Shown: piece by piece, positions 24,228 to 46,406 of the stretch
How positions within the stretch are numbered: position 1 is the stretch's first letter
How the letters are laid out: each line of letters starts with the position of its first letter
DNA from: a virus
Length of the DNA stretch: 64,000 bases
Reading direction: 5' to 3' (one strand)
Virus record (IMG/VR): IMGVR_UViG_3300024261_000007
Coordinates: 32,001 to 96,000 of that record
Notes under the pieces: model-generated
Told to the model about the DNA's origin: nothing
The model's input: only the letters and a program-made list of their open reading frames with translations
Databases searched by the model: none
Program-made: the position numbers and the translations under genes

Positions 24228-25919
24228 ATGGCAAATAATTTATATGAAGAGGCAATTAACGCTGCTGAGCAGTTAAAAGAAGCTGCTGAAAGTAAAGTTA
24301 AGCAACACTTAATTGAAGCGATGTCGCCTCAAATTAAGCAATTGGTGGAAAAAAGTTTATTAGGTGAAGAGGTAGATGAACTTTCTGTCGTACCTGTAAA
24401 CTCAGGGGAAGAGCCAGAAGACGACGACAAACCAGAAGATGGCAACGACAAACCAGAAGATGGCAAAGACGCTGATGAAAAAGAAGTACTTTCAGATTCA
24501 GAAAATCAAGAAGAATATGGAATGTATGAAGATGAGGATGCTGACTTTTTCTTTGCAGGTAAAAATGAGCAAGTTGAAATTTCAGAAGAATCAGCAAAAA
24601 TATTAAAAAGTATGTTAAGTCATAAAGCTAAAAAGGATGCAACTGCTGAAAGATTAAAAGAGATAAAGTCTGCAATAATATCTTTAAAGCGATCAATTAT
24701 TTTAGCAGAGAGTAGTAATAAAACACAAAAGCATCGTTCTAAATTTGTCTTGGCGTACAAAAATATATTGCGTGAACTAAAAAATATTAAAGAGAGTAAT
24801 ATAATTAAATCAGATAAAACGTTATTAAAAGAATATTTAAGAATATCTAAGGAGATAAATAGCATGTCAACAAGACGCAGATCAAGAAGAAATTATTTAA
24901 ATGAAAGCCTCGACGAACTGCTCGAGATGAATATCTTTGAAGAAGACGAAGACGAAGCTAGCGACGAAGTAGAAGCGGACGCAGAAGTAGAAGCGGATGC
25001 AGAAACTGAAGAAGAAGCTGGTGAAGTTACGGCTGGCATGCTAAAACAAGCTTCTGAAATGTCTTTAGGCGATTTAGTTTCAAAAGCTTTAGATCCCGAA
25101 GGTTCTGATATGCCTTCTGATGATTTTGATCTTGATCTTGGGGATGAAGAATCTGACGAAGAATCTGACGAAGAATCTGAAGAAGAATCTGACGAGAGCA
25201 ATGAGGGTTATCATAGAGAAATCGACGAGATGGATCACAAAGAAATCGACGAGATCGATGAAGGTCCAGATAGTTCTACGAACGAGACTCGTTACGCTAA
25301 GGGAGATCTTTTCTTGGAGATCGACGAAAATATGCTTAAAAATGAAATTACTAAAATGAGAAAACTTCGCGAAGGCGAAGCAACTGAAATGTCATCACAC
25401 TTTGGCGGTGGTGATTTAGATAAAGAAATGTTTGTTGATGTTGACGAAGGCGATCTTAATGTACATTCAGGCAATCTTGGCCGTGAGGATGTACCTATGC
25501 CTAAAGTTGAAGCAGCTCTACGTAAAACAATGCGTAAGAATCGCATGTTAGAGGGCAAGGTACAAGAATATCAGGATGCGGTTCGAGGAATGAAGACGCA
25601 ATTAACAGAGATGAACCTCTTTAACGCTAAGCTTCTCTATGCAAATAAACTTATGCAAAACAGAGGGCTTTCACTTAAACAACAACGCCATATTGTTGAG
25701 TCATTAGACGAAGCTTCTACTATGAACGAGGCAAAACTCTTATTTGAGAGCCTCTCGAAGTCTTTGATGAAACCTGCTCCAAAGGGAAGAAAACTTTCAG
25801 AAGGTGCAAACAGAAGAACTCTTGCTTCGGCATCACGTTCTACAAGAAGCGCGCAAGCTCCTCTTAATGAATCTGTTGCATTGGACCGTTGGGCAACTCT
25901 TGCAGGAATCAAAAAGTAA
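24228..25919 (+). CDS. Prohead scaffolding/core protein
   Basis: Immediately upstream of the capsid gene; acidic repeats, coiled-coil C-terminus LTEMNLFNAKLLYANKL, ends RWATLAGIKK; many LxE sites. Confidence 0.8.
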   Translation: MANNLYEEAINAAEQLKEAAESKVKQHLIEAMSPQIKQLVEKSLLGEEVDELSVVPVNSGEEPEDDDKPEDGNDKPEDGKDADEKEVLSDSENQEEYGMYEDEDADFFFAGKNEQVEISEESAKILKSMLSHKAKKDATAERLKEIKSAIISLKRSIILAESSNKTQKHRSKFVLAYKNILRELKNIKESNIIKSDKTLLKEYLRISKEINSMSTRRRSRRNYLNESLDELLEMNIFEEDEDEASDEVEADAEVEADAETEEEAGEVTAGMLKQASEMSLGDLVSKALDPEGSDMPSDDFDLDLGDEESDEESDEESEEESDESNEGYHREIDEMDHKEIDEIDEGPDSSTNETRYAKGDLFLEIDENMLKNEITKMRKLREGEATEMSSHFGGGDLDKEMFVDVDEGDLNVHSGNLGREDVPMPKVEAALRKTMRKNRMLEGKVQEYQDAVRGMKTQLTEMNLFNAKLLYANKLMQNRGLSLKQQRHIVESLDEASTMNEAKLLFESLSKSLMKPAPKGRKLSEGANRRTLASASRSTRSAQAPLNESVALDRWATLAGIKK

Positions 25920-35710: not shown

Positions 35711-36100
35711 TTAACCTTCTGAACTTTCTTCTCCAGCAGGAGACTCTTCTTCAGTACCAGCTTCAGTACCAGCTTCAGTACCAGCCTCAGTACCAGCCTC
35801 AGTACCAGCTTCAGTACCAGCTTCAGTACCAGCGTCAGTCTCTGGATCAGAATCATCGTCTTCTCCAGCAGGAGACTCTTCTTCAGTACCAGCTTCAGTA
35901 CCAGCCTCTTCAATAGGCTCTTCTACTTCCTCACCAGCCTCTTCTTCAACACCACTATCAACGTCATTACCCATGTCTTCACTTTCTACTTCTTCACCAG
36001 CTTGATGTTCTTCAACATCATTATCGTCGTCGTCGTCGCAAGCAACGAATGTAAATATAAGTGCTAAGGCAAGTGCTAAGATATTTTTAATACTAAACAT
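35711..36100 (-). CDS. Acidic lipoprotein with AGTE repeats
   Basis: AAGGAG RBS; signal peptide MFSIKNILALALALIFTFVA-C followed by DDDDD. Confidence 0.8.
   Translation of the reverse strand: MFSIKNILALALALIFTFVACDDDDDNDVEEHQAGEEVESEDMGNDVDSGVEEEAGEEVEEPIEEAGTEAGTEEESPAGEDDDSDPETDAGTEAGTEAGTEAGTEAGTEAGTEAGTEEESPAGEESSEG
35749..35832. repeat. 12-bp tandem repeat (c[t/c]tcagtaccag x7), with two more units at ~35881
   Basis: Directly visible; encodes AGTE on the - strand. Confidence 0.92.
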
Positions 36101-37153: not shown

Positions 37154-37426
37154 ATGGAACCAAACGTAGTGCTTTCAGTAGGTAGTTTAATTGGTTTGTT
37201 TGGGTTGTTTTACGCTTGGCATAAAGACGCAAAGTCAACTTCAAATCAAATTACAGCTTTAGAAAACAAAGTTAAACATTTAGATGAAAAGTTAAAGCAA
37301 CAAGACAGTGCAATTGAAAGAATAAATCAGACCCTTATTAAAATGGATCTTAAGTTAACACGTATTGACACACAGCTTTCTCTTTTATTAGAAGAAAAAA
37401 GAGACAGACAACAAAATGTTTCTTAA
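37154..37426 (+). CDS. Single-TM coiled-coil protein, putative holin/XhlA-like
   Basis: GGAG RBS; N-terminal TM followed by a heptad coil. Confidence 0.55.
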   Translation: MEPNVVLSVGSLIGLFGLFYAWHKDAKSTSNQITALENKVKHLDEKLKQQDSAIERINQTLIKMDLKLTRIDTQLSLLLEEKRDRQQNVS

Positions 37427-37690: not shown

Positions 37691-37781
37691 TTTTTTAAAA
37701 AAAGATTGAACAAATTCAATATTATGATTATAATTTGTATGCATTATTTAATTAATCACAATATTGAAAGGAATATAAAAT

Positions 37782-38033
37782 ATGCAATTAACACCTGAGC
37801 AAGTTCAATCTATCAACATTCTTCTTTCTGCAGTACAAGTAGCACAACGACGTGGCGCATTTTCTTTGCAAGATGCATCTACTCTACAAGATGCAATTGA
37901 TAAGCTAGTACCAAGAGAAGAGCAAGAGAGACAAGCTGCAGAAGCACAAAAAGCTGGCGCAGAATCAGATGATGCTGAGGCAGCGGTAAGCATGCCTGAA
38001 GAAGATTCTGAACATTCATCTGATTCCGAGTAA
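37782..38033 (+). CDS. Hypothetical protein
   Basis: AAGGA RBS; AVQVAQRRGAFSLQDA motif; acidic tail. Confidence 0.75.
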   Translation: MQLTPEQVQSINILLSAVQVAQRRGAFSLQDASTLQDAIDKLVPREEQERQAAEAQKAGAESDDAEAAVSMPEEDSEHSSDSE

Positions 38034-38054
38034 CAATTTTAAAAAATATATTTT

Positions 38055-38077
38055 AAGTGCATTAATGCACTTTTTTT
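38055..38077 (+). terminator. Rho-independent terminator
   Basis: Palindrome aagtgcattaatgcactt plus a T run. Confidence 0.75.
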
Positions 38078-38101
38078 GTATTTACATAATATATAGTTTT
38101 A

Positions 38102-38182
38102 GGCCCGATGCAAACATAACAGCTGACCCCGCCAGTGCATCGGAATCATGCGGACAAGTTTATCACAGAAAGTGAGGAAGTT
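38102..38182 (+). ncRNA. Putative structured cis-regulatory RNA (unclassified, pseudoknot-like)
   Basis: GC-rich island; ccgatgca(38105-12)/tgcatcgg(38136-43), ctg/cag inner stem, loop ccgc(38129-32) complementary to gcgg(38150-53), tcac-agaaa-gtga hairpin over the RBS. Confidence 0.55.
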
Positions 38183-38620
38183 ATGGCAACAAGAAGAAAG
38201 TCTACTTCTAAAAAGAAAAAAGAAGAACCAGTAGTAGAATCTCCTGTAGAAGTTGTTGAACCAGCAGTAGAAGAAAAGGCACCTGAGCCTCCACCCGTTG
38301 TTGAACCCGAACAGCCTCAAGCCGAAGAAGAACCACCTCCTGTGCCTGAAGAGCCGAAAGCAAAAATGTCAGCCAAAGTAGAGCCTGTTTCAGAAGCAGT
38401 TGCTGATGTTCCTGTAGAAGTTCCTGCACCAGTTGTAGAACAAAAGGCTGAGGTTGTAGAACTGCCTCGTATGAGTATTGGTTCTATTGTTATGACACCA
38501 ACTGGCAAGCGTTGTCAAGTTGTAGGTCATGCAAAAGGTGGAAAGTTTAGAGTTCAAAATTTAAAAAATACGCGAAAGGTTTATGCATACGAACCTTCTC
38601 GTCTCTCATTGGTACAATAA
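38183..38620 (+). CDS. Pro/Glu-rich protein with basic N-terminus and C-terminal SH3/KOW-like domain
   Basis: GAGG RBS before ATG 38183; IGSIVMTPTGKRCQVVG. Confidence 0.7.
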   Translation: MATRRKSTSKKKKEEPVVESPVEVVEPAVEEKAPEPPPVVEPEQPQAEEEPPPVPEEPKAKMSAKVEPVSEAVADVPVEVPAPVVEQKAEVVELPRMSIGSIVMTPTGKRCQVVGHAKGGKFRVQNLKNTRKVYAYEPSRLSLVQ

Positions 38621-38651
38621 TTTTATAAAATAAAAAAAAAGGAGATATGAT

Positions 38652-39167
38652 ATGCCGTTAGTAGAAATTAGTACAGATAAAGGTTTAGTTCAAAAGTCTG
38701 GTGCCGCAACAGATGGTGGTGCAGGTCTTAAATTACTTGCATTAAATGGTGCAGCTGCAGAGCTTAAAGTAATTCAAGCAGATGTGACAATTGCAGATGG
38801 CGCTGCAGGCAGTAAAGGAAAATCATCAGCAGCGATTGTCCCAGCAGGCTTTGTAGCTTTAAGTTGTCATGTTCGATTTACAGTTGCCTCTACAGGTAAT
38901 GTCAACTTGGTTGATATTGGAACTGAAGCAGACCCTGATTGCTTTGTCGACGGTGCTGGTTTGTTAGATTTAAGAACAATTGGTGATAAAGGATTTGTAT
39001 CATGCAATGGTTTAGCTGCAGTCAATGGTGATGCAGCGACAACTGGTAGAGCATTAGAAGCTGCAGCAGACGAACTTAGCGTTACTTTAAGCGGTGATCC
39101 TGGCGCAGGTGATGCAACAGTAAGAGTTACACTTGTAGGTCTTGTACTTACTCAAGCAACAGCATAA
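38652..39167 (+). CDS. Putative head decoration/structural protein, paralog 1
   Basis: Ala/Gly-rich beta-type sequence; highly similar to the next gene. Confidence 0.7.
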   Translation: MPLVEISTDKGLVQKSGAATDGGAGLKLLALNGAAAELKVIQADVTIADGAAGSKGKSSAAIVPAGFVALSCHVRFTVASTGNVNLVDIGTEADPDCFVDGAGLLDLRTIGDKGFVSCNGLAAVNGDAATTGRALEAAADELSVTLSGDPGAGDATVRVTLVGLVLTQATA

Positions 39168-39178
39168 GGAGACTCAAA

Positions 39179-39691
39179 ATGCCATTAGTAGAAATTAGTA
39201 ATGAAAAAGGTCTCGTACAGAAAACCGGCACTTCTATTGGAGGCGGTGCTGCTATAAAGCTGTTAGCATCAAATAGCGCTGCGTCGGAATTAAAAATAAT
39301 TCAAGCCGACATTACAGTTGGCGCTGCAGTAACTACAGCAAAGTCAGCTTCAGCAGTTGTCCCTGCAGGTTTTGTTGCACTTGCTGCAATGTTCCGCGTA
39401 ACCGAAGCTGCAACTGAAGCTGTAGTAATTGAAGATATTGGAACTGATGCAGATCCTGATTGTTTTGTTGACGGTGCTGCTATTACTGCAGATGCGGCGG
39501 GCGACAAAGGATTTGTATCGTGTAACGGTTTAGCTGCAGTTAATGGTGCTATAGCAACAACAGGACGCGCATTAGAAGCTGCTGCAGATGAACTTGAAAT
39601 CGTATTGGATGGAGTTCCTGGAGGTGATGGGTGCACAGTAAGAGTTACTCTTGTAGGTCTTGTAATGACAGGCGCAATTGCTCCAGTTTAA
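39179..39691 (+). CDS. Putative head decoration/structural protein, paralog 2
   Basis: MPLVEIS.EKGLVQK, DIGT.ADPDCFVDGA and GDKGFVSCNGLAAVNG shared with paralog 1. Confidence 0.7.
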   Translation: MPLVEISNEKGLVQKTGTSIGGGAAIKLLASNSAASELKIIQADITVGAAVTTAKSASAVVPAGFVALAAMFRVTEAATEAVVIEDIGTDADPDCFVDGAAITADAAGDKGFVSCNGLAAVNGAIATTGRALEAAADELEIVLDGVPGGDGCTVRVTLVGLVMTGAIAPV

Positions 39692-39720
39692 TTGACTTTA
39701 AAGACTAAACTTTTTATTTT

Positions 39721-39845: not shown

Positions 39846-41324
39846 ATGGCTTCATTTCTTGAGACAACGCAGCCAACAGCATTTGGTGTGTTTGATAAAG
39901 ACTTGCATTTTCAAGAAGACGCAGTGGGTATTGTATTATACGTAAAACGTCGTCTTGGTGATGACATTATGTCTGTAGAATTAACAAATAGACAAATATG
40001 GACAAACTTTGAAGAAGCATGCTTAGAGTTTTCTAAAAACATCAACGCACACCAAGCTGAATCATACATGTCAAACTTGTTAGGTTTGCAAATAGGACCA
40101 AGCGAAACATTTAAAAAAAATGACTTTGATCATTACTACTTCGGCGACGATGCTTTAAAAAACGAAAGTCCTTTACTCATACAAGACACGTTTGATCCTC
40201 GCTTTAAAATAAACAACAAACAAGGCCAATATAAAACAGACGAAAACGGTAATGTTATAACTCCAAGAGAAATTGTTGAATTATTGGATGGCGAAGTAAG
40301 AGTTGCTGCTTCTCCTATTGTTTTGGCCAGAATTGGTCCACATGGAAAAGAACAACAGTTTCCAAGAGAAACATTAGAATATTTAACACGTCGTGCAGAG
40401 CCATATGCATCAGAAGCAGGTGTAGGTGGTTCTACAGATTTTGTTAGGTCATTTATAAAACTTGAAGGCGGGAAGCAAGATTACGATATATATTCAGATC
40501 TTGTAGTTCCTGGGCCAAATGGTGAAGAGCTTAAGCTTGAAGAGTTTGATGGTAGTGATGGACACTTAAGTGCTTTTAATCCAAAGTTTGCAAGTAGCTT
40601 GCCTGCAAATATATTACCATCAAAAATTAAAATCCAAGAAGTATTTCACTTTTCCCCGCAGGCTGCTTACAGGTTTTTTGATACAACATCAGCAGTCAAC
40701 TACTTAAACAACCAGTTTTCATTTGAATCTTTTACACCCGAAACAGTTTTTTATGTTTTACCTGTTTTTGAAGACTTGCTTCGTGCAGGACAGTTAGATA
40801 TATCAAATAGAGTAAGAAGAAGTAATTATTCGTATAGATTGCAAGGAAAAAATCTAAGAATATTTCCATCTCCATCAAAAGGAAATCCAATGAATCTTTT
40901 TGTTAAGTTTTCTTTTCCTCCAGATCCTTATAAAACGACATTACCTTACGACGACAGCTCTATTACTGGCGTTTCAAACATATCTAATGTACCTTTTTCT
41001 AACATCAAGTACGAGAGCATTAATTCTATGTGTAGAACGTGGATTAAGCAATATACTTTGGCATTGTGCAGAGAAACATTAGGTTTAGTAAGATCAAAGT
41101 TTTCTTCTGTGCCTATTCCAGGTAGTGATTTAAGCATGAACGGGAGCGAACTTTTAAGTCAAGGTCGAGAAGACAAAGTGAACTTAATTACTTCTTTAGG
41201 CGAGACATTAGATAAGCTAACTTATCAAAAACTTTTAGAGAGTGATGCAGCCCAGTCTGAAACAATGACACAGATTCTTAAAAGAATACCTATTCCTAAC
41301 GGAAGAGCAATTATTATAGGATAA
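39846..41324 (+). CDS. Neck/head-tail adaptor protein (T4 gp13-like)
   Basis: YVKRRLG..MSVELT, WIKQYTLALCRETLGLVRSKF..PIPG..MNGSELL. Confidence 0.8.
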   Translation: MASFLETTQPTAFGVFDKDLHFQEDAVGIVLYVKRRLGDDIMSVELTNRQIWTNFEEACLEFSKNINAHQAESYMSNLLGLQIGPSETFKKNDFDHYYFGDDALKNESPLLIQDTFDPRFKINNKQGQYKTDENGNVITPREIVELLDGEVRVAASPIVLARIGPHGKEQQFPRETLEYLTRRAEPYASEAGVGGSTDFVRSFIKLEGGKQDYDIYSDLVVPGPNGEELKLEEFDGSDGHLSAFNPKFASSLPANILPSKIKIQEVFHFSPQAAYRFFDTTSAVNYLNNQFSFESFTPETVFYVLPVFEDLLRAGQLDISNRVRRSNYSYRLQGKNLRIFPSPSKGNPMNLFVKFSFPPDPYKTTLPYDDSSITGVSNISNVPFSNIKYESINSMCRTWIKQYTLALCRETLGLVRSKFSSVPIPGSDLSMNGSELLSQGREDKVNLITSLGETLDKLTYQKLLESDAAQSETMTQILKRIPIPNGRAIIIG

Positions 41325-41329
41325 AGATT

Positions 41330-41986
41330 ATGGCACGTTTATTTGTAGGGCAGCGAGAAGTAGACTTCTTTTCAGACTTGACAAAAGAGTTGATTAAAGA
41401 CGTAGCAGGTCAAAAAGTATACTACTATACAATAAGAGAAGACTTGTCTAATATACATGAAGTGTACGAAGAGTCACCTCATAAGATATTTAATCCACCA
41501 GTTGAAATTGAATGCATGATTGAATGGCAACCTTCAGAAGTTAAAACAACAAACTTTGGCTCTGAACATATTAAGACAATTACTTTGTATTTGCATTATA
41601 GAGACTTGCTTGATAGAGGTATTACGTTTAACGAAGGTGACTATTTTTCTTATGGCACATACTTTTTTGAAGCAACTTCTGTTAAATACGACAAGCTTGC
41701 TTACGGACAGATAGATAGAGTTGTTTCTTTACAGGTAAATGGTAAACAAACTCGAATGGAGCAGATTGCATTTAAACCTCATGGTCCTTTAGGAGAAGAA
41801 TATACAGACAAAGATGCAATACAAACAACATTTGAGCAGCAGCGAGGATTTAATGAAAGCGACAAGCGTCAATTAAGAAGTGACGGTGTCATTGATGATC
41901 CAATTACAGGTCCTAAAAAAGTTGCACCTGATGGTACAACAAAGAGCGTAAACGGAGTAGGTTCTTCGTTTTATGGAGATGATTAA
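41330..41986 (+). CDS. Neck/head-completion protein (T4 gp14-like)
   Basis: GQKVYYY, VYEE..K.F..PVEI, EGDYF; position after the gp13-like gene. Confidence 0.7.
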   Translation: MARLFVGQREVDFFSDLTKELIKDVAGQKVYYYTIREDLSNIHEVYEESPHKIFNPPVEIECMIEWQPSEVKTTNFGSEHIKTITLYLHYRDLLDRGITFNEGDYFSYGTYFFEATSVKYDKLAYGQIDRVVSLQVNGKQTRMEQIAFKPHGPLGEEYTDKDAIQTTFEQQRGFNESDKRQLRSDGVIDDPITGPKKVAPDGTTKSVNGVGSSFYGDD

Positions 41987-43212
41987 TGGCAACAAAGTAT
42001 GACATAGATAACGCTAAAAGATATGCACCTACTGGTTACGAAGGGACAAACGAGCCTGACTATGTCATTCCCTCTTGCGGCCTTGAAGACTTAGACAAGT
42101 CTGTTTTTAATCTTTTTGACAAACAAATTCCTCTTTTTCATGAAATGCATGGCTCTGTAGAGAAGGTACCTGTTGTCTTTGCAACTGGTGAAAGGTTTGC
42201 TATATTAAGACGCAAAAAGCCACTTATAGATAAAAACGGTACACTTATTTTACCACTTATATCTATATCAAGAGGCGCAGTTGATGCAGTGCCACAAAAA
42301 GGTATTGCAAATAATCAAATGTTTCCTCATGTTGTAACTAAAAGAATTTCCAAAAAAGATTTAGAATATAGACAGCAACAAAATGTTGAAGGCTTGCGTA
42401 ATGTTAAAGGTGAAGACCTTAATTTAGAGGATGGTGACTTTTCGCTTAAACCTAAAACAGTAAATAATATTATTGAAACAATAGAAATACCCCCTATTAA
42501 GTATTTTTCTGCAAGTTATGAGATTACAATCTGGTCGTCTTTTACACAGCAAATGAACAAATTCTTGGAAAGTATTTTAAATGCTTACACACTTAATCCT
42601 GGGCAACAATTTAGATTAGAAAGTGATAAAGGTTATACTTTTTCTGCTTTTATGGAAAGTTCTTTTTCTCAAGATACAAGCTATGCAGATTTTACAGATG
42701 CTGAAAGGTATATTAAATATAGTATGTCTTTAAATGCAACAGGTTATTTGATTGCACCAAACATATTAGGAGGAAAGACTGCTTTAAGATCTTTCTTGAG
42801 CGCACCTCAAATATCTTTCGATGTCTTAGATGAATATGAAAATATAGATCCACAACTTTCTGGTGCACCTGTTGATTCAAATCCTGACGCTCATATTTTT
42901 GATGATCTTGCAACTGAAGACTCTTTTGCACCTGCACAAGGTGTAGGCGTGAGAGGCGGACCAAATGCTGCTGCGCTTCGAGATGTTGATGCATCTGCAG
43001 GAGTTGCAGTAGGACTTAATTTAGAAAAGTACACAAGCGAATCAGTTGGTGCAAGAGGCTCTGATTGGAAAAAGACAAGAAAAACTTTTGTAAGAAATAC
43101 CGAAGGCAAACTTATTCCTGTCATGGCAAAAGCATCAAAAGGCAAAGGTGAGACAGTTTATGATGCTCGTCTGGCTGAAGTTTTGTTTAATATTTCAAAC
43201 GACAAAGAATAA
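41986..43212 (+). CDS. Tail terminator/sheath stabiliser (T4 gp15-like)
   Basis: KVPVVFATGERF, LPLISISR, YEITIW..QMNKFLE; position before the sheath. Confidence 0.72.
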   Translation: MATKYDIDNAKRYAPTGYEGTNEPDYVIPSCGLEDLDKSVFNLFDKQIPLFHEMHGSVEKVPVVFATGERFAILRRKKPLIDKNGTLILPLISISRGAVDAVPQKGIANNQMFPHVVTKRISKKDLEYRQQQNVEGLRNVKGEDLNLEDGDFSLKPKTVNNIIETIEIPPIKYFSASYEITIWSSFTQQMNKFLESILNAYTLNPGQQFRLESDKGYTFSAFMESSFSQDTSYADFTDAERYIKYSMSLNATGYLIAPNILGGKTALRSFLSAPQISFDVLDEYENIDPQLSGAPVDSNPDAHIFDDLATEDSFAPAQGVGVRGGPNAAALRDVDASAGVAVGLNLEKYTSESVGARGSDWKKTRKTFVRNTEGKLIPVMAKASKGKGETVYDARLAEVLFNISNDKE

Positions 43213-43271: not shown

Positions 43272-46200
43272 ATGGCAGAACAGACATTTAAGTCTCCAGG
43301 ATTTTTCGAAAGAGAGATTGAGTTAGTTAGTCGTCCTCTTACACGAAATACAGCTACACCAGTGGGTGTAATTGGTCCTGCCCAAAAAGGACAAGCTTTC
43401 GTACCGAAAACAGTAACAAGCGTAGATGAATTTATCAGAGAATTCGGCATGCCCGACCAAGATACTTCAGCATCTCATGCTGTTGCTGAGTTTTTTGCAA
43501 ATCGAGGTAAAGCAGCAACTTTCTGCCGTATTTTAGGTACTGGTAAAGGTTACGGCTCAGATCTTAAATTTGCAGGATTCAAACTAGATGGTGCAGACTT
43601 AGGGCAAAATCAAGCAAAAGGAGCAGTACAGTTTATTGTTGCAGAACACAAAGTTGATGACGCAGAACATGTTACATATGGTATTTTTAACGATAATGAC
43701 TCAATCACAACAAACGCTGACGAAGACCCAAGTAATGGCTTAGTCGCTAACGACGACATAATACAGCTAGTTCGTGCAATGATTTTTATGCATAAGGATT
43801 ATACGTTAAGAATCGTTTCAGGCGGTGGAACAGATCAATCTCAAGTGTCAGATGATGCTGATAAAACTTTTACTCTTTATATTCACGATGCAGTCAATAA
43901 TTTGCTTGTAAAACAATATACAGTTTCTTTAGACCCAGCGTCTTCGCAATATATTTCAAAAGTTTTAAACACAGATTCTTTCAGTTTTACAAGCACAGGA
44001 CACTTTCTTTATGCAGACTTTCCTGTAGAAGATCTTCTTGCATCAACTCGAGCACAAAGTGTTGCTGTAGTTAGAGGTAAAGATGACGGTAATTATTTGG
44101 ATATGTATGGAGACTTTGTTTCTCGATTTGAAGCACCACGTACAACCTCGTTTATATCACAACCTTTTGGTGATAAAGAATATGACTTGTTTCACTTTGA
44201 ATCTTTAGACGATGGAACATATGCAAGTGATGATTACAAGATTTCTATTGCAGATCTTCGTGCATCAACAGAGAAAAATTATAGATTTGGAACATTTACT
44301 GTTCAACTTCGTAAAATTGATGATACAGATGATGCGCCTATTATTTTAGAATCTTATGCAAGATGTTCTTTAGATCCAGATTCTCCAAATTATATCGCAA
44401 GACGAATTGGAGATCAAAAAGTTTATTTAAATCTTGATACAAATGACGAAGATGAAAAGCGTCTGCTAAGAGAAGGTACTTTCCCGAGCCAGTCAACACG
44501 TATTCGAGTCGTAATGAATAAGTCAGTGACTCGCAACGAAATCCCAGAAGATTCTCTTCCTTTTGGTTATCGTGGTATTCCTACTTTAAGAACAACACCT
44601 AACGGTAAAGACGGAGGAGAAAATCAAGTTTCTTTGCTTTCTGGTCGTGATGTTGTTTCCGGTGGTGCATCTGATGATTTAGGTTGTGCTGTATTGCCTC
44701 CTTTGCCTTTTAGATCAAAAGTAACAAGAGGCAGTATGCAAAAAGACGGTACTTACTTTCAAACTTATTTTGGACAATCTTTAGAAGAGTCTAATGGCGT
44801 TGTACAAAAAGTAACTCAAGAAAATGTTAAGTCTTATTTCTACTGGGGATTACATACACAAAAAGTAACAAATATTAACGAGCCTAATAGAGGTGGTTTA
44901 ACTGATTTTAATCCGCTTATTATTAATTTAACAAAGTTCTTGACAAAGTCAGATGCACTTAAATTTAGTTCTGAAGAAGCAGACAGCTTTAACAATAACA
45001 AGTTTTCTTTATCGAAAGTTGCATTCCCTTATGCTTCGATTACTGATATACCTAACGTATTGTCAGATGCCTTTTTAGAGGCAGCGTACATTCGAAATGC
45101 TGATGTTGGTTCAAATGCATACGATTCTGTTGCACACACAATTAATATGGCAGCTGATAATATACAAGATGCATTTACAAATGAATTGCAAGGTCAAAGT
45201 CAGGCAATTCGTGCAACAATGGCTAAACTTTTAGCAGAAGATCCTGTTAAATTTAATAAGTACAGCTTGATGGCTAAGTTTACTGCTCCTTTTTATGGTG
45301 GTTTTGACGGTGTAAACATTTTAGATAGAGATGACTTCTTCTTTACAGACAAATCATCGTCTATTGATGTAGATGGTCATGCTGGCGCTAATGGATATTT
45401 AAGTGGTCTATCAGGAACAAGTGACATTAATGAGTCATTAGGTTTACCAATTCAAGGAACAAAGCTAAATAACAATGCAGTGTTATCTTATAGAGAAGCT
45501 ATTCGTGTTATGACTGATGAAATGATTGTAGATCATAATGTCTTGGTTGTTCCTGGTATTAGAGATTCATTAATTACAGACTTTGCTGCACGAAGAGTTA
45601 AAGATTTTGGCAAGGCAATATTCTTGATGGATATACCTCACTACGATGCAGCAGGAAATAGAATTTTTGTTTCTTCACGTGGCGTAGCAAGTGGTATTGC
45701 TGATGTTGATATGACTAGTCAGCAATTTGATATTCGTGAACTTGATTCATCATATGTCGCAACATATTTTCCAGACGTTATGTTAAGAGATTCAGGAGAT
45801 GTTGTAAGTGATGGCGCAACTCAAAATCAAAGAGTTGTAAGAACGCCTTCTTCAGTTGTAGCCCTTGGCGCACTTGCTCGAACAGACAATTTAGCAGGAT
45901 CAGCACCCTGGTTTGCACCTGCAGGATTTTCTCGAGGTGCCCTTGGTAGAGTATCAAGTATTGATGTAAGATTAAACGCAGGTGATCGTGATACTCTTTA
46001 CGAGGCAAGAATTAATCCGATTGCAAATTTCCCAAATAATCAGTTTGTTATCTTTGGTCAGAAGACAACACAAATTGCAAGAACAGCTTTGGACCGTGTA
46101 AACGTAAGAAGATTAATGATCAATATCAAGAGAAGAATTCAAAGAGTTGCACAAGGTCTTTTGTTTGAGCAAAATGATGCAGCAACAAGAAATAGATTTA

Positions 46201-46406
46201 TTTCCCAGGCTTCTTCAATTCTTGCAGATGTTCGAGTAAGACAAGGTATTGAAGACTTTAGAGTTGTTATGGATGATACAAATAACTCTCAAGAAGACGT
46301 TGACAATAACAGACTGAATGGCCGAATTATTGTTGTTCCGACCAGAGCTGTTGAGTTTATTGCAATGGACTTTATTATTACAAATAGCGGCGTAGAATTC
46401 CCATAA
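43272..46406 (+). CDS. gp18: Tail sheath protein 1 (gp18-like)
   Basis: SPGFFEREIEL, IGPAQKG.AFVP, PWFAPAGFSRG, INPI, FGQKT, LDRVNVRRL, PTRAVEFI..DF. Confidence 0.95.
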   Translation: MAEQTFKSPGFFEREIELVSRPLTRNTATPVGVIGPAQKGQAFVPKTVTSVDEFIREFGMPDQDTSASHAVAEFFANRGKAATFCRILGTGKGYGSDLKFAGFKLDGADLGQNQAKGAVQFIVAEHKVDDAEHVTYGIFNDNDSITTNADEDPSNGLVANDDIIQLVRAMIFMHKDYTLRIVSGGGTDQSQVSDDADKTFTLYIHDAVNNLLVKQYTVSLDPASSQYISKVLNTDSFSFTSTGHFLYADFPVEDLLASTRAQSVAVVRGKDDGNYLDMYGDFVSRFEAPRTTSFISQPFGDKEYDLFHFESLDDGTYASDDYKISIADLRASTEKNYRFGTFTVQLRKIDDTDDAPIILESYARCSLDPDSPNYIARRIGDQKVYLNLDTNDEDEKRLLREGTFPSQSTRIRVVMNKSVTRNEIPEDSLPFGYRGIPTLRTTPNGKDGGENQVSLLSGRDVVSGGASDDLGCAVLPPLPFRSKVTRGSMQKDGTYFQTYFGQSLEESNGVVQKVTQENVKSYFYWGLHTQKVTNINEPNRGGLTDFNPLIINLTKFLTKSDALKFSSEEADSFNNNKFSLSKVAFPYASITDIPNVLSDAFLEAAYIRNADVGSNAYDSVAHTINMAADNIQDAFTNELQGQSQAIRATMAKLLAEDPVKFNKYSLMAKFTAPFYGGFDGVNILDRDDFFFTDKSSSIDVDGHAGANGYLSGLSGTSDINESLGLPIQGTKLNNNAVLSYREAIRVMTDEMIVDHNVLVVPGIRDSLITDFAARRVKDFGKAIFLMDIPHYDAAGNRIFVSSRGVASGIADVDMTSQQFDIRELDSSYVATYFPDVMLRDSGDVVSDGATQNQRVVRTPSSVVALGALARTDNLAGSAPWFAPAGFSRGALGRVSSIDVRLNAGDRDTLYEARINPIANFPNNQFVIFGQKTTQIARTALDRVNVRRLMINIKRRIQRVAQGLLFEQNDAATRNRFISQASSILADVRVRQGIEDFRVVMDDTNNSQEDVDNNRLNGRIIVVPTRAVEFIAMDFIITNSGVEFP

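Follow-up and report, generated by a model that had tools for sequence, protein, structure and literature searches.

A conserved pseudoknotted RNA leader in uncultured marine myoviruses with a possible role in masking a translation start site

The leader in front of a cluster of small virion genes in an uncultured marine myovirus is an evolutionarily conserved folded RNA, as confirmed by the pattern of natural sequence changes among its relatives. It would start near 38101, reach to the ATG at 38183 with a length of 82–85 bases, and make up the entire 5′ leader of a late phage mRNA encoding three small virion proteins (38183–39691). We favour the reading that the leader acts in cis to control translation initiation by masking the start site, which the sequence comparisons make moderately probable. 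The leader probably controls the amount of a capsid-surface protein. A sequence-only reading of the same DNA had proposed that this phage 5′ leader holds a structured RNA of no known class, with a pseudoknot. This is upheld by its conservation in relatives, by the covariation of all helices and by the absence of a match in Rfam 15, and none of the three outcomes named in that reading as refuting it was observed. The stems, the 7-nt loop, the CCGC/GCGG pseudoknot and the hairpin at the ribosome-binding site that it listed are all present, and the pairing between a bulge and the start codon, which it missed, is described here.

All coordinates refer to the window, the whole stretch of 64,000 nucleotides that was analysed, which consists of bases 32001–96000 of a source record of 133,024 bases (IMGVR_UViG_3300024261_000007, estimated completeness 53%). 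The window has a G+C content of about 31% and carries the structural module of a T4-type myovirus. Its features around the leader are:

38055–38077, + strand: terminator-like hairpin and T-run, closing the upstream gene 37782–38033
38090–38095, + strand: promoter-like box TAnnTA, followed by 5 nt and then an invariant A at 38101
38100–38104, + strand: conserved unpaired 5′ tail UAGGC (A2, G4 and C5 invariant, G3 in 36 of 39 cores)
38105–38112, + strand: 5′ strand of P1, partner 38136–38143
38115–38120, + strand: 5′ strand of P2, bulge CAUAAC, partner GUUAUG 38180–38185
38122–38136, + strand: P3 hairpin, GCUG / loop ACCCCGC / CAGU, supported by covariation
38129–38132, + strand: 5′ strand of the pseudoknot, the final four loop bases inside the P3 hairpin loop
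38136–38143, + strand: 3′ strand of P1, supported by pairing and covariation
38144–38149, + strand: conserved unpaired joiner AAUCAU (family consensus AAKCWU)
38150–38153, + strand: 3′ strand of the pseudoknot, GCGG, followed by a conserved A at 38154; supported by covariation
38163–38177, + strand: optional linker hairpin UCAC-AGAAA-GUGA over the Shine-Dalgarno (SD) sequence GAGG 38174–38177, in 13 of 37 leaders
38180–38185, + strand: 3′ strand of P2, GUUAUG, including the start codon ATG 38183–38185; supported by pairing and covariation
38183–38620, + strand: operon gene 1, a lysine-rich, Pro/Glu-rich protein of 145 aa with no family
38652–39167, + strand: operon gene 2, 171 aa, phrog_36974, jelly-roll model, with a shared N-terminal peptide
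39179–39691, + strand: operon gene 3, a paralogue of 170 aa, 67% identical to gene 2
39846–41324: neck/head-completion-like gene of the structural module
41986–43212: gp15-like gene of the structural module
43272–46406: tail sheath gene of the structural module

The leader had been described as a GC-rich island between a terminator and a gene start. This is borne out by a local G+C content of 0.50 in 38110–38169 against 0.23–0.25 in 38020–38109, and by the terminator-like hairpin at 38055–38072, which has a stem of seven pairs and a T tail. A terminator also precedes the element in the relative L002. The element occurs once in the 133-kb record, including in a repeat search with filters off, and once or twice in each of five relatives' records of 143–267 kb. 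Its location is constant; it heads a cluster of small genes that has the neck genes on one side and the major capsid gene, or a lysis-like cluster, on the other. On the minus strand of the window, an ORF of 129 aa (35711–36100) begins like a signal peptide, up to a lipobox-like ...FVAC, and has a very acidic tail with tandem GTEA repeats. This ORF may encode a lysis-cassette lipoprotein because an Rz-like spanin match lies nearby (37154–37426, phrog_89, E 2.8e-7).

In the window, the 5′ arm CCGAUGCA (38105–38112) is complementary to UGCAUCGG (38136–38143), giving a stem of 8 bp. This encloses an inner stem between CUG (38123–38125) and CAG (38133–38135) with a 7-nt loop, ACCCCGC (38126–38132). 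The loop bases CCGC (38129–38132) are complementary to GCGG (38150–38153), forming the pseudoknot. Further downstream the hairpin UCAC/GUGA (38163–38166/38172–38175) shares bases with GAGG (38174–38177), ahead of the ATG at 38183. The fold of this single sequence is not significant (MFE −20.9 kcal/mol, z −0.47, with 63 of 200 shuffles folding as well), and that of the opposite strand is likewise not significant (z −0.86). The 5′ tail GGC and the joiner AAUCAU were also inspected by eye for further pairings with rRNA, with the beginning of the coding region or with the linker that holds the SD; none is kept across the families.

Relatives were collected in several ways. A search with the protein of 38652–39167 found one contig, L002 (60% amino-acid identity), in which the element precedes the homologous gene and both the outer stem and the pseudoknot carry compensatory changes. 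Two pattern scans of IMG/VR, built on the two conserved blocks of the element, gave at least 115 and at least 116 stretches, and most stretches among the matches listed were chance occurrences in GC-rich DNA. There were at least 157 pattern matches across 217 records, of which 51 have an AT-rich upstream flank of 14 nt; 50 of these 51, including the copy in the window, are the element and one (L201) is not. The roughly 50 copies are found in uncultured marine myovirus contigs. They represent 38 distinct leaders, 37 of which form alignment A1, and alignment A2 holds the 30 distinct cores within A1. The sequences omitted from A1 were L182, in which the 5′ end is cut, L190, in which the start-codon finder missed a variant SD, and L144, which was initially excluded by a GC filter and later restored.

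The patterns fixed both conserved blocks and we therefore also searched for members without a pattern. A covariance model found a second, altered copy in L169. In a collection of 63 loci anchored on the neck protein the model matched 17, and diverged members were recovered down to 34.9 bits (L358, L366, L379/L380, L353, L387/L388 and L356). The copy in L360 is too diverged for the covariance model and was recognised by eye. Alignment A5 contains 39 distinct cores, with L380 and L388 omitted as identical to L379 and L387; it adds nine cores to A2, all of them found without a pattern. Among the 37 neck-protein loci with at least 2.5 kb upstream, 16 have a model match and L360 has its diverged copy. 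The remaining loci are without the element, including seven that were searched again with filters off. The gene cluster is absent altogether in L362, L369 and L386. Similar genes stand behind plain leaders in L378, L403 and L376, so the element is dispensable.

Some contigs have duplicated leader-bearing genes, each of which can have its own copy of the RNA element (L049, L186 and L169). The copies in L049 (2583–2631 and 3126–3174) are identical; those in L169 (at 6860 and 7599) have diverged, with a joiner AAUCUU and a G-U within P1.

A DNA search of GenBank phages with 37700–39700 gave no match, and a search with the 103-nt element gave two chance matches only, of 27 and 19 nt. The closest cultured relatives by neck protein are Microcystis phage Mel-JY01 (34%) and the Flavobacterium immuto phages (30%), and the element is absent within 12 kb on either side of the neck gene in these phages. 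A pattern scan of genome contigs gave no true copy among the matches listed (at least 120), one of which is a tRNA.

The alignments support every helix of the core. In A2, 99.3% of 450 cells are standard pairs, compared with 78.4% in shuffles. Changes on both sides are seen in 10 of 15 pairs, and each of the four pseudoknot pairs covaries without a single unpaired cell. When the partners were slid by 1–3 columns as a control, 29–40% of cells pair. RNAalifold predicts P1 and P3 unaided. In A5, 98.8% of 585 cells are standard pairs (75.5% in shuffles), 13 of 15 pairs show change on both sides, and the covariation score was reached by none of 500 shuffles. P1 accounts for seven of these pairs, six of them changed on both sides, with 98.5% of cells paired; three of the four P3 pairs have changed on both sides; and the four pseudoknot pairs all covary with 100% of cells paired. 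There are seven unpaired cells in A5, three of which come from L360, whose 6-nt loop MAFFT set one column off. P1 pairs that were invariant before are compensated in A5, with G-C replaced by A-U in four cores and C-G by U-A in one. Covariation in relatives, put forward as a check on the proposed structure, is thus found throughout the core.

G-U pairs occupy 40 of the 585 cells in A5 and would be A-C mismatches if read on the other strand; the selected strand is therefore the sense strand of the genes. The unpaired bases are also strongly conserved. The first loop base is A in 38 of 39 cores. In the joiner, A46, A47, C49 and U51 are present in all 39 cores, A50 in 38 and U48 in 33. The base after the 3′ strand of the pseudoknot is A in 34 cores, U in three, G in one and C in one.

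These data bear on an explanation that does not involve RNA, namely that the conserved stretch codes for extra N-terminal residues of an ORF starting at GTG 38135, or is a promoter or operator site acting at the level of DNA. There is an open frame from 38135 into the gene and a conserved box lies directly upstream. A start at 38135, which had been named as a finding that would overturn the RNA interpretation, requires a frame that is kept in 12 of 37 leaders only; measured from a fixed position in the motif, the ATG is spread over all three frames (16, 9 and 12 of the 37 leaders), and the linker varies from 15 to 40 nt. The compensatory changes and the 40 G-U cells argue for selection on sense-strand pairing. 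We consider this explanation extremely improbable.

No known RNA family accounts for the element. A search of the whole window with Rfam 15 at gathering thresholds gave no matches. At E up to 10, nine weak matches were obtained in 38040–38240, none of them on the element strand over 38100–38185; the nearest is RT-9 on the minus strand, with 14.8 bits against a gathering score of 46.1. ARAGORN predicts no tRNA genes in the window and no Rfam tRNA model matches the element at E up to 10. In two contigs, L006 and L269, tRNA genes with an anticodon loop that reads Glu fit the two-block pattern by chance, and their pairings are unlike those of the element. We found no description of the element in the accessible part of the literature; it may be an unnamed entry in the supplements of a catalogue of 10,006 candidate viral structured RNAs from IMG/VR (PMC10690425). 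The element appears to be a new RNA family of a known kind, with a function that we infer from its structure and position.

A fourth helix, P2, connects the core to the start of the gene. The bulge between P1 and P3, CAUAAC (38115–38120), is the exact complement of GUUAUG (38180–38185), which ends in the start codon. In all 37 leaders duplexfold predicts 5–8 contiguous pairs that join the bulge to the 13 bases surrounding the ATG. Cognate pairs have a mean energy of −5.6 kcal/mol, compared with −3.4 when bulges are paired with the starts of other leaders and −1.3 when they are shuffled, and the cognate energy was reached by 136 of 7400 shuffled bulges. When the partner window was slid from the pseudoknot to 60 nt inside the gene, the best one contained the ATG in 35 of 37 leaders. 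Within the start codon, A is paired in 35 leaders, U in 30 and G in 28 of the 37.

The pairs of P2 differ between lineages: at −4 there are 10 C-G and five A-U, at −3 11 C-G, 12 U-A and three A-U, at −1 33 A-U and two G-C, and at +4 eight G-C and three C-G, in a count that uses pairings chosen by energy and hence leans towards pairing. In diverged members the helix is made of new sequences (GUGAUC/GAUCAC, GUGAAU/AUUCAC and GAAAC/GUUUC) and lies over the spacer between SD and AUG, not over the AUG. P2 is short and AU-rich, with energies of −4.2 to −6.6 kcal/mol.

The linker between the pseudoknot and the ATG is 15–40 nt long and an SD precedes the ATG in all 37 leaders. Of the 37 leaders, 13 were flagged as having a linker hairpin that pairs with the SD, and the short-linker lineages have none; in the window this hairpin contacts two SD bases only. 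The SD lies within a single-stranded linker in at least 19 of 37 leaders.

From these pairings we propose that the leader forms a compact double pseudoknot made of P1 (38105–38111/38137–38143), P3 (38122–38125/38133–38136) and the loop pseudoknot (38129–38132/38150–38153). This core would present the bulge 38115–38120, and P2 would close over the start site at 38180–38185. In the lineage of the window the small hairpin would also tie up part of the SD. The 30S subunit would be kept out of a fully folded leader, or would have to melt the fold. Because the start site would not be free for the 30S subunit when the leader is folded, the leader may set or switch the operon's translation. The dozen or so conserved unpaired bases (UAGGC, the first loop A, AAKCWU and the A after the pseudoknot) resemble a binding pocket, and we therefore suggest that an effector, a small ligand or a protein, could stabilise or open the fold. 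The earlier suggestion of a translational operator or riboswitch-like control fits best since a covarying helix covers the start site; the ribozyme that was suggested beside it is disfavoured, as discussed below.

Where a pseudoknotted leader is conserved and covaries to this extent, it is usually a riboswitch, a ribozyme or a protein operator. Within start-site masking, an operator bound by a protein is possible, if doubtful. A small-molecule riboswitch is the more tentative version: a small molecule or second messenger from the infected cell would be the ligand of the 55-nt pseudoknotted core, and once bound the fold would either close onto the start codon or set it free. The element has the parts that mark this kind of RNA, a covarying core with invariant unpaired bases joined to an expression platform (P2). 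The downstream virion genes give no hint of a ligand. A search for an alternative 'on' structure with covariation found none. It is rather unlikely that the element is a new riboswitch class, which would be the first known to gate the synthesis of a phage capsid-surface protein.

Several observations count against start-site masking. Two of the 37 leaders have their best P2 partner elsewhere than at the ATG, P2 is weak, and in diverged members it covers the spacer. A repressing leader would not be obviously useful for what are probably abundant capsid-surface proteins, and some relatives lack the element. An alternative is a constitutive fold at the 5′ end, acting with no effector, that would shield the late message from 5′-end-dependent decay and fix its translation rate, with P2 as a part of the stable end structure that the ribosome melts. 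Such a fold would start only a few bases from the putative 5′ end, a ribosome could open a helix as weak as P2, the SD is single-stranded in many leaders and the search for a switching structure was negative. However, a hairpin alone would suffice for protection or tuning, and about a dozen invariant unpaired bases and two covarying pseudoknots are left unexplained. We regard this explanation as unlikely.

The position of the 5′ end is suggested by a promoter-like box. TAnnTA lies 12 bases upstream of the GG of the element, and the base preceding GG is always A. In the box region T3, A4, T7, A8 and A14 are invariant in 37 leaders, and the box and the A before GG are kept in the diverged members. 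The geometry of the box and the A is like that of T4 late promoters, and on this likeness we infer a transcription start near 38101, which would make the element the 5′ end of the message. A lineage-specific form of the box is repeated before the neck gene, as TATATAG in the genome of the window and as ATACTTA in the lineage of L356 and L360. The word TATATAG occurs 11 times on the plus strand and 14 times on the minus strand, against 37 expected from composition, and it lies within about 100 nt upstream of an ORF with SD and ATG in four of the 11 and one of the 14 cases; this lends weak support to a general late promoter.

Other late genes have TAATTAAA about 25 nt before the ATG (43272, 46451, 51854 and 52497, by eye). 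A word like ATAATTAATATTG recurs upstream of ORFs at 25226, 53435 and 68228 of the record, the last two being 21435 and 36228 of the window, with two tandem copies before 36229. The ATAATTAATATTG-like and TAATTAAA words are candidate promoter classes. In the lineage with the ATACTTA box, some genes have the box 3–5 nt ahead of their ATG, as in ...atacttagagtcATG, at about 4950–4972 in L360 and at about 5950–5973 in L369 and L386. If this box is a promoter, these genes would have leaderless or near-leaderless late messages.

Of nine RNA-library runs, all in the form of Logan contigs, four were examined. A contig of 333 nt from a relative (X1) spans 38087–38245 and extends upstream into the terminator of that relative; in such contigs the ends, strand and expression level are unreadable and DNA carry-over is possible.

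The fold is similar in topology to the HDV-like ribozymes, as had been remarked from the sequence. If it were a self-cleaving ribozyme of this type, read-through transcripts would be cut immediately before P1, and the downstream message would keep the fold. The delta-like ribozymes, including P4-less forms and the phage 'theta' ribozymes, have the same nested double-pseudoknot strand order that is supported by covariation here, with the 5′ strands of P1 and P2, P3 and its 7-nt loop with the loop pairing, the 3′ strand of P1, the loop partner and the 3′ strand of P2 in succession (PMC10879173). Further points in common are a P3 of 3–4 bp whose 7-nt loop pairs with downstream bases, an optional hairpin like P4, small size and presence in phages, where minimal forms lacking P4 are found (PMC10879173). 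The X1 contig, which runs from the terminator into the element, may be a read-through RNA of the kind such a ribozyme would cut, or DNA carry-over.

The features that define these ribozymes fail in the element. The catalytic cytosine of HDV-like ribozymes is the first position of J4/2 and cleavage takes place 5′ of G1 (PMC10879173). In the element, by contrast, there is no catalytic C at the first junction position, and no C occurs in the six bases before the 3′ strand of P2 (−12 to −7 before the ATG) in any of the 37 leaders. In HDV-like ribozymes G1 is the base of P1 and no conserved upstream sequence is required, whereas in the element P1 opens with C-G (37 of 39 cores) rather than G-U, and conservation extends to the five bases that precede it (UAGGC). 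The 4-bp loop pairing is not adjacent to P1, from which it is separated by the invariant 6-nt joiner, and the base that follows it is A in 34 of 39 cores and C in one. No Rfam model of the HDV family matches at E up to 10, and, given a promoter-like box 12 nt upstream, there would be hardly any transcript to remove. In addition, the 3′ strand of P2 in the element is always at the translation start site. The likeness is therefore one of topology and not of membership, and self-cleavage is very unlikely.

The working principle of start-site masking is nearest, by analogy, to that of leaders in which a pseudoknot involves the initiation region. In the operators of Escherichia coli rpsO/S15 and of the alpha operon/S4, a hairpin region likewise pairs with the initiation region, competing with or trapping the 30S subunit, and one copy likewise heads one operon. 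The element has no sequence or model similarity to these operators, and its genes are phage virion genes. The alpha-operon model is included in Rfam, in which the element gave no match. In the SAM-II and preQ1-II riboswitches the ribosome-binding site is buried in the ligand-bound pseudoknot, and the platform is fused to the aptamer as in the element. Like riboswitches of this kind, the element has a core of some 55 nt in which the helices covary and unpaired bases are invariant; it differs in having no match to an Rfam riboswitch and in heading structural genes rather than genes of metabolism or transport.

Leader structures that contact the initiation region of late or structural genes are also found in T4-type phages. 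In T4 e, soc, 49 and I-TevI, helices that occlude the ribosome-binding site are relieved by late promoters inside or after the 5′ arm; soc is a capsid decoration gene. Here, unlike in these, the box precedes the whole fold by 12 nt, both in all 37 leaders and in the diverged members. With the putative promoter upstream of the fold, the late transcript would keep both strands, and relief of the T4 type is thus not expected. The fold of the element is also far more elaborate than the T4 leaders and more conserved in sequence. The T4 gene 32 pseudoknot operator is an example of a leader that acts post-transcriptionally (PMC10690425).

The region 38183–39691, which the sequence-only reading had treated as one gene, consists of three ORFs (38183–38620, 38652–39167 and 39179–39691). 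The two paralogues, 38652–39167 and 39179–39691, both match phrog_36974, a family of unknown function. They alone in the genome of the window have the shared N-terminal peptide, which comprises about 20 residues and reads roughly MPKV (MPxV), five residues, KGLVQ, one residue and G. The gene right behind the element encodes a small protein with the shared peptide and an otherwise diverse body in 30 of 41 copies, and a lysine-rich low-complexity protein in the other 11, which include the window. In the lysine-rich class the following gene has the shared peptide in all 10 loci examined.

Searches of the protein atlas with the 145-aa and 171-aa proteins gave unnamed viral clusters only. An AlphaFold model of the 171-aa protein, built with three sequences (pLDDT 60.4, pTM 0.63), is a beta-sandwich in which the first 31 residues are disordered. 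The best Foldseek matches of this model are small chains in phage capsid reconstructions, namely cyanophage Pam1 (7eel_H, E 2e-4, TM 0.50/0.60) and, further, Ralstonia phage GP4 (8h89_J) and Helicobacter phage KHP30 (7dn2). As a lead rather than a finding, the model suggests that the 171-aa protein is a capsid decoration protein. The shared N-terminal peptide may be a capsid-anchoring arm, because the first 31 residues are predicted to be disordered ahead of a decoration-like jelly-roll body.

To our knowledge almost no leaders of this kind have been described for phage structural genes. A conserved pseudoknotted leader of about 85 nt, with four helices backed by natural compensatory changes, would place post-transcriptional control over variable capsid-surface proteins in large marine myoviruses that are abundant and uncultured. 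If an effector exists, the leader would be a new sensor. If there is none, it would be a compact natural module that sets translation from the 5′ end of the message.
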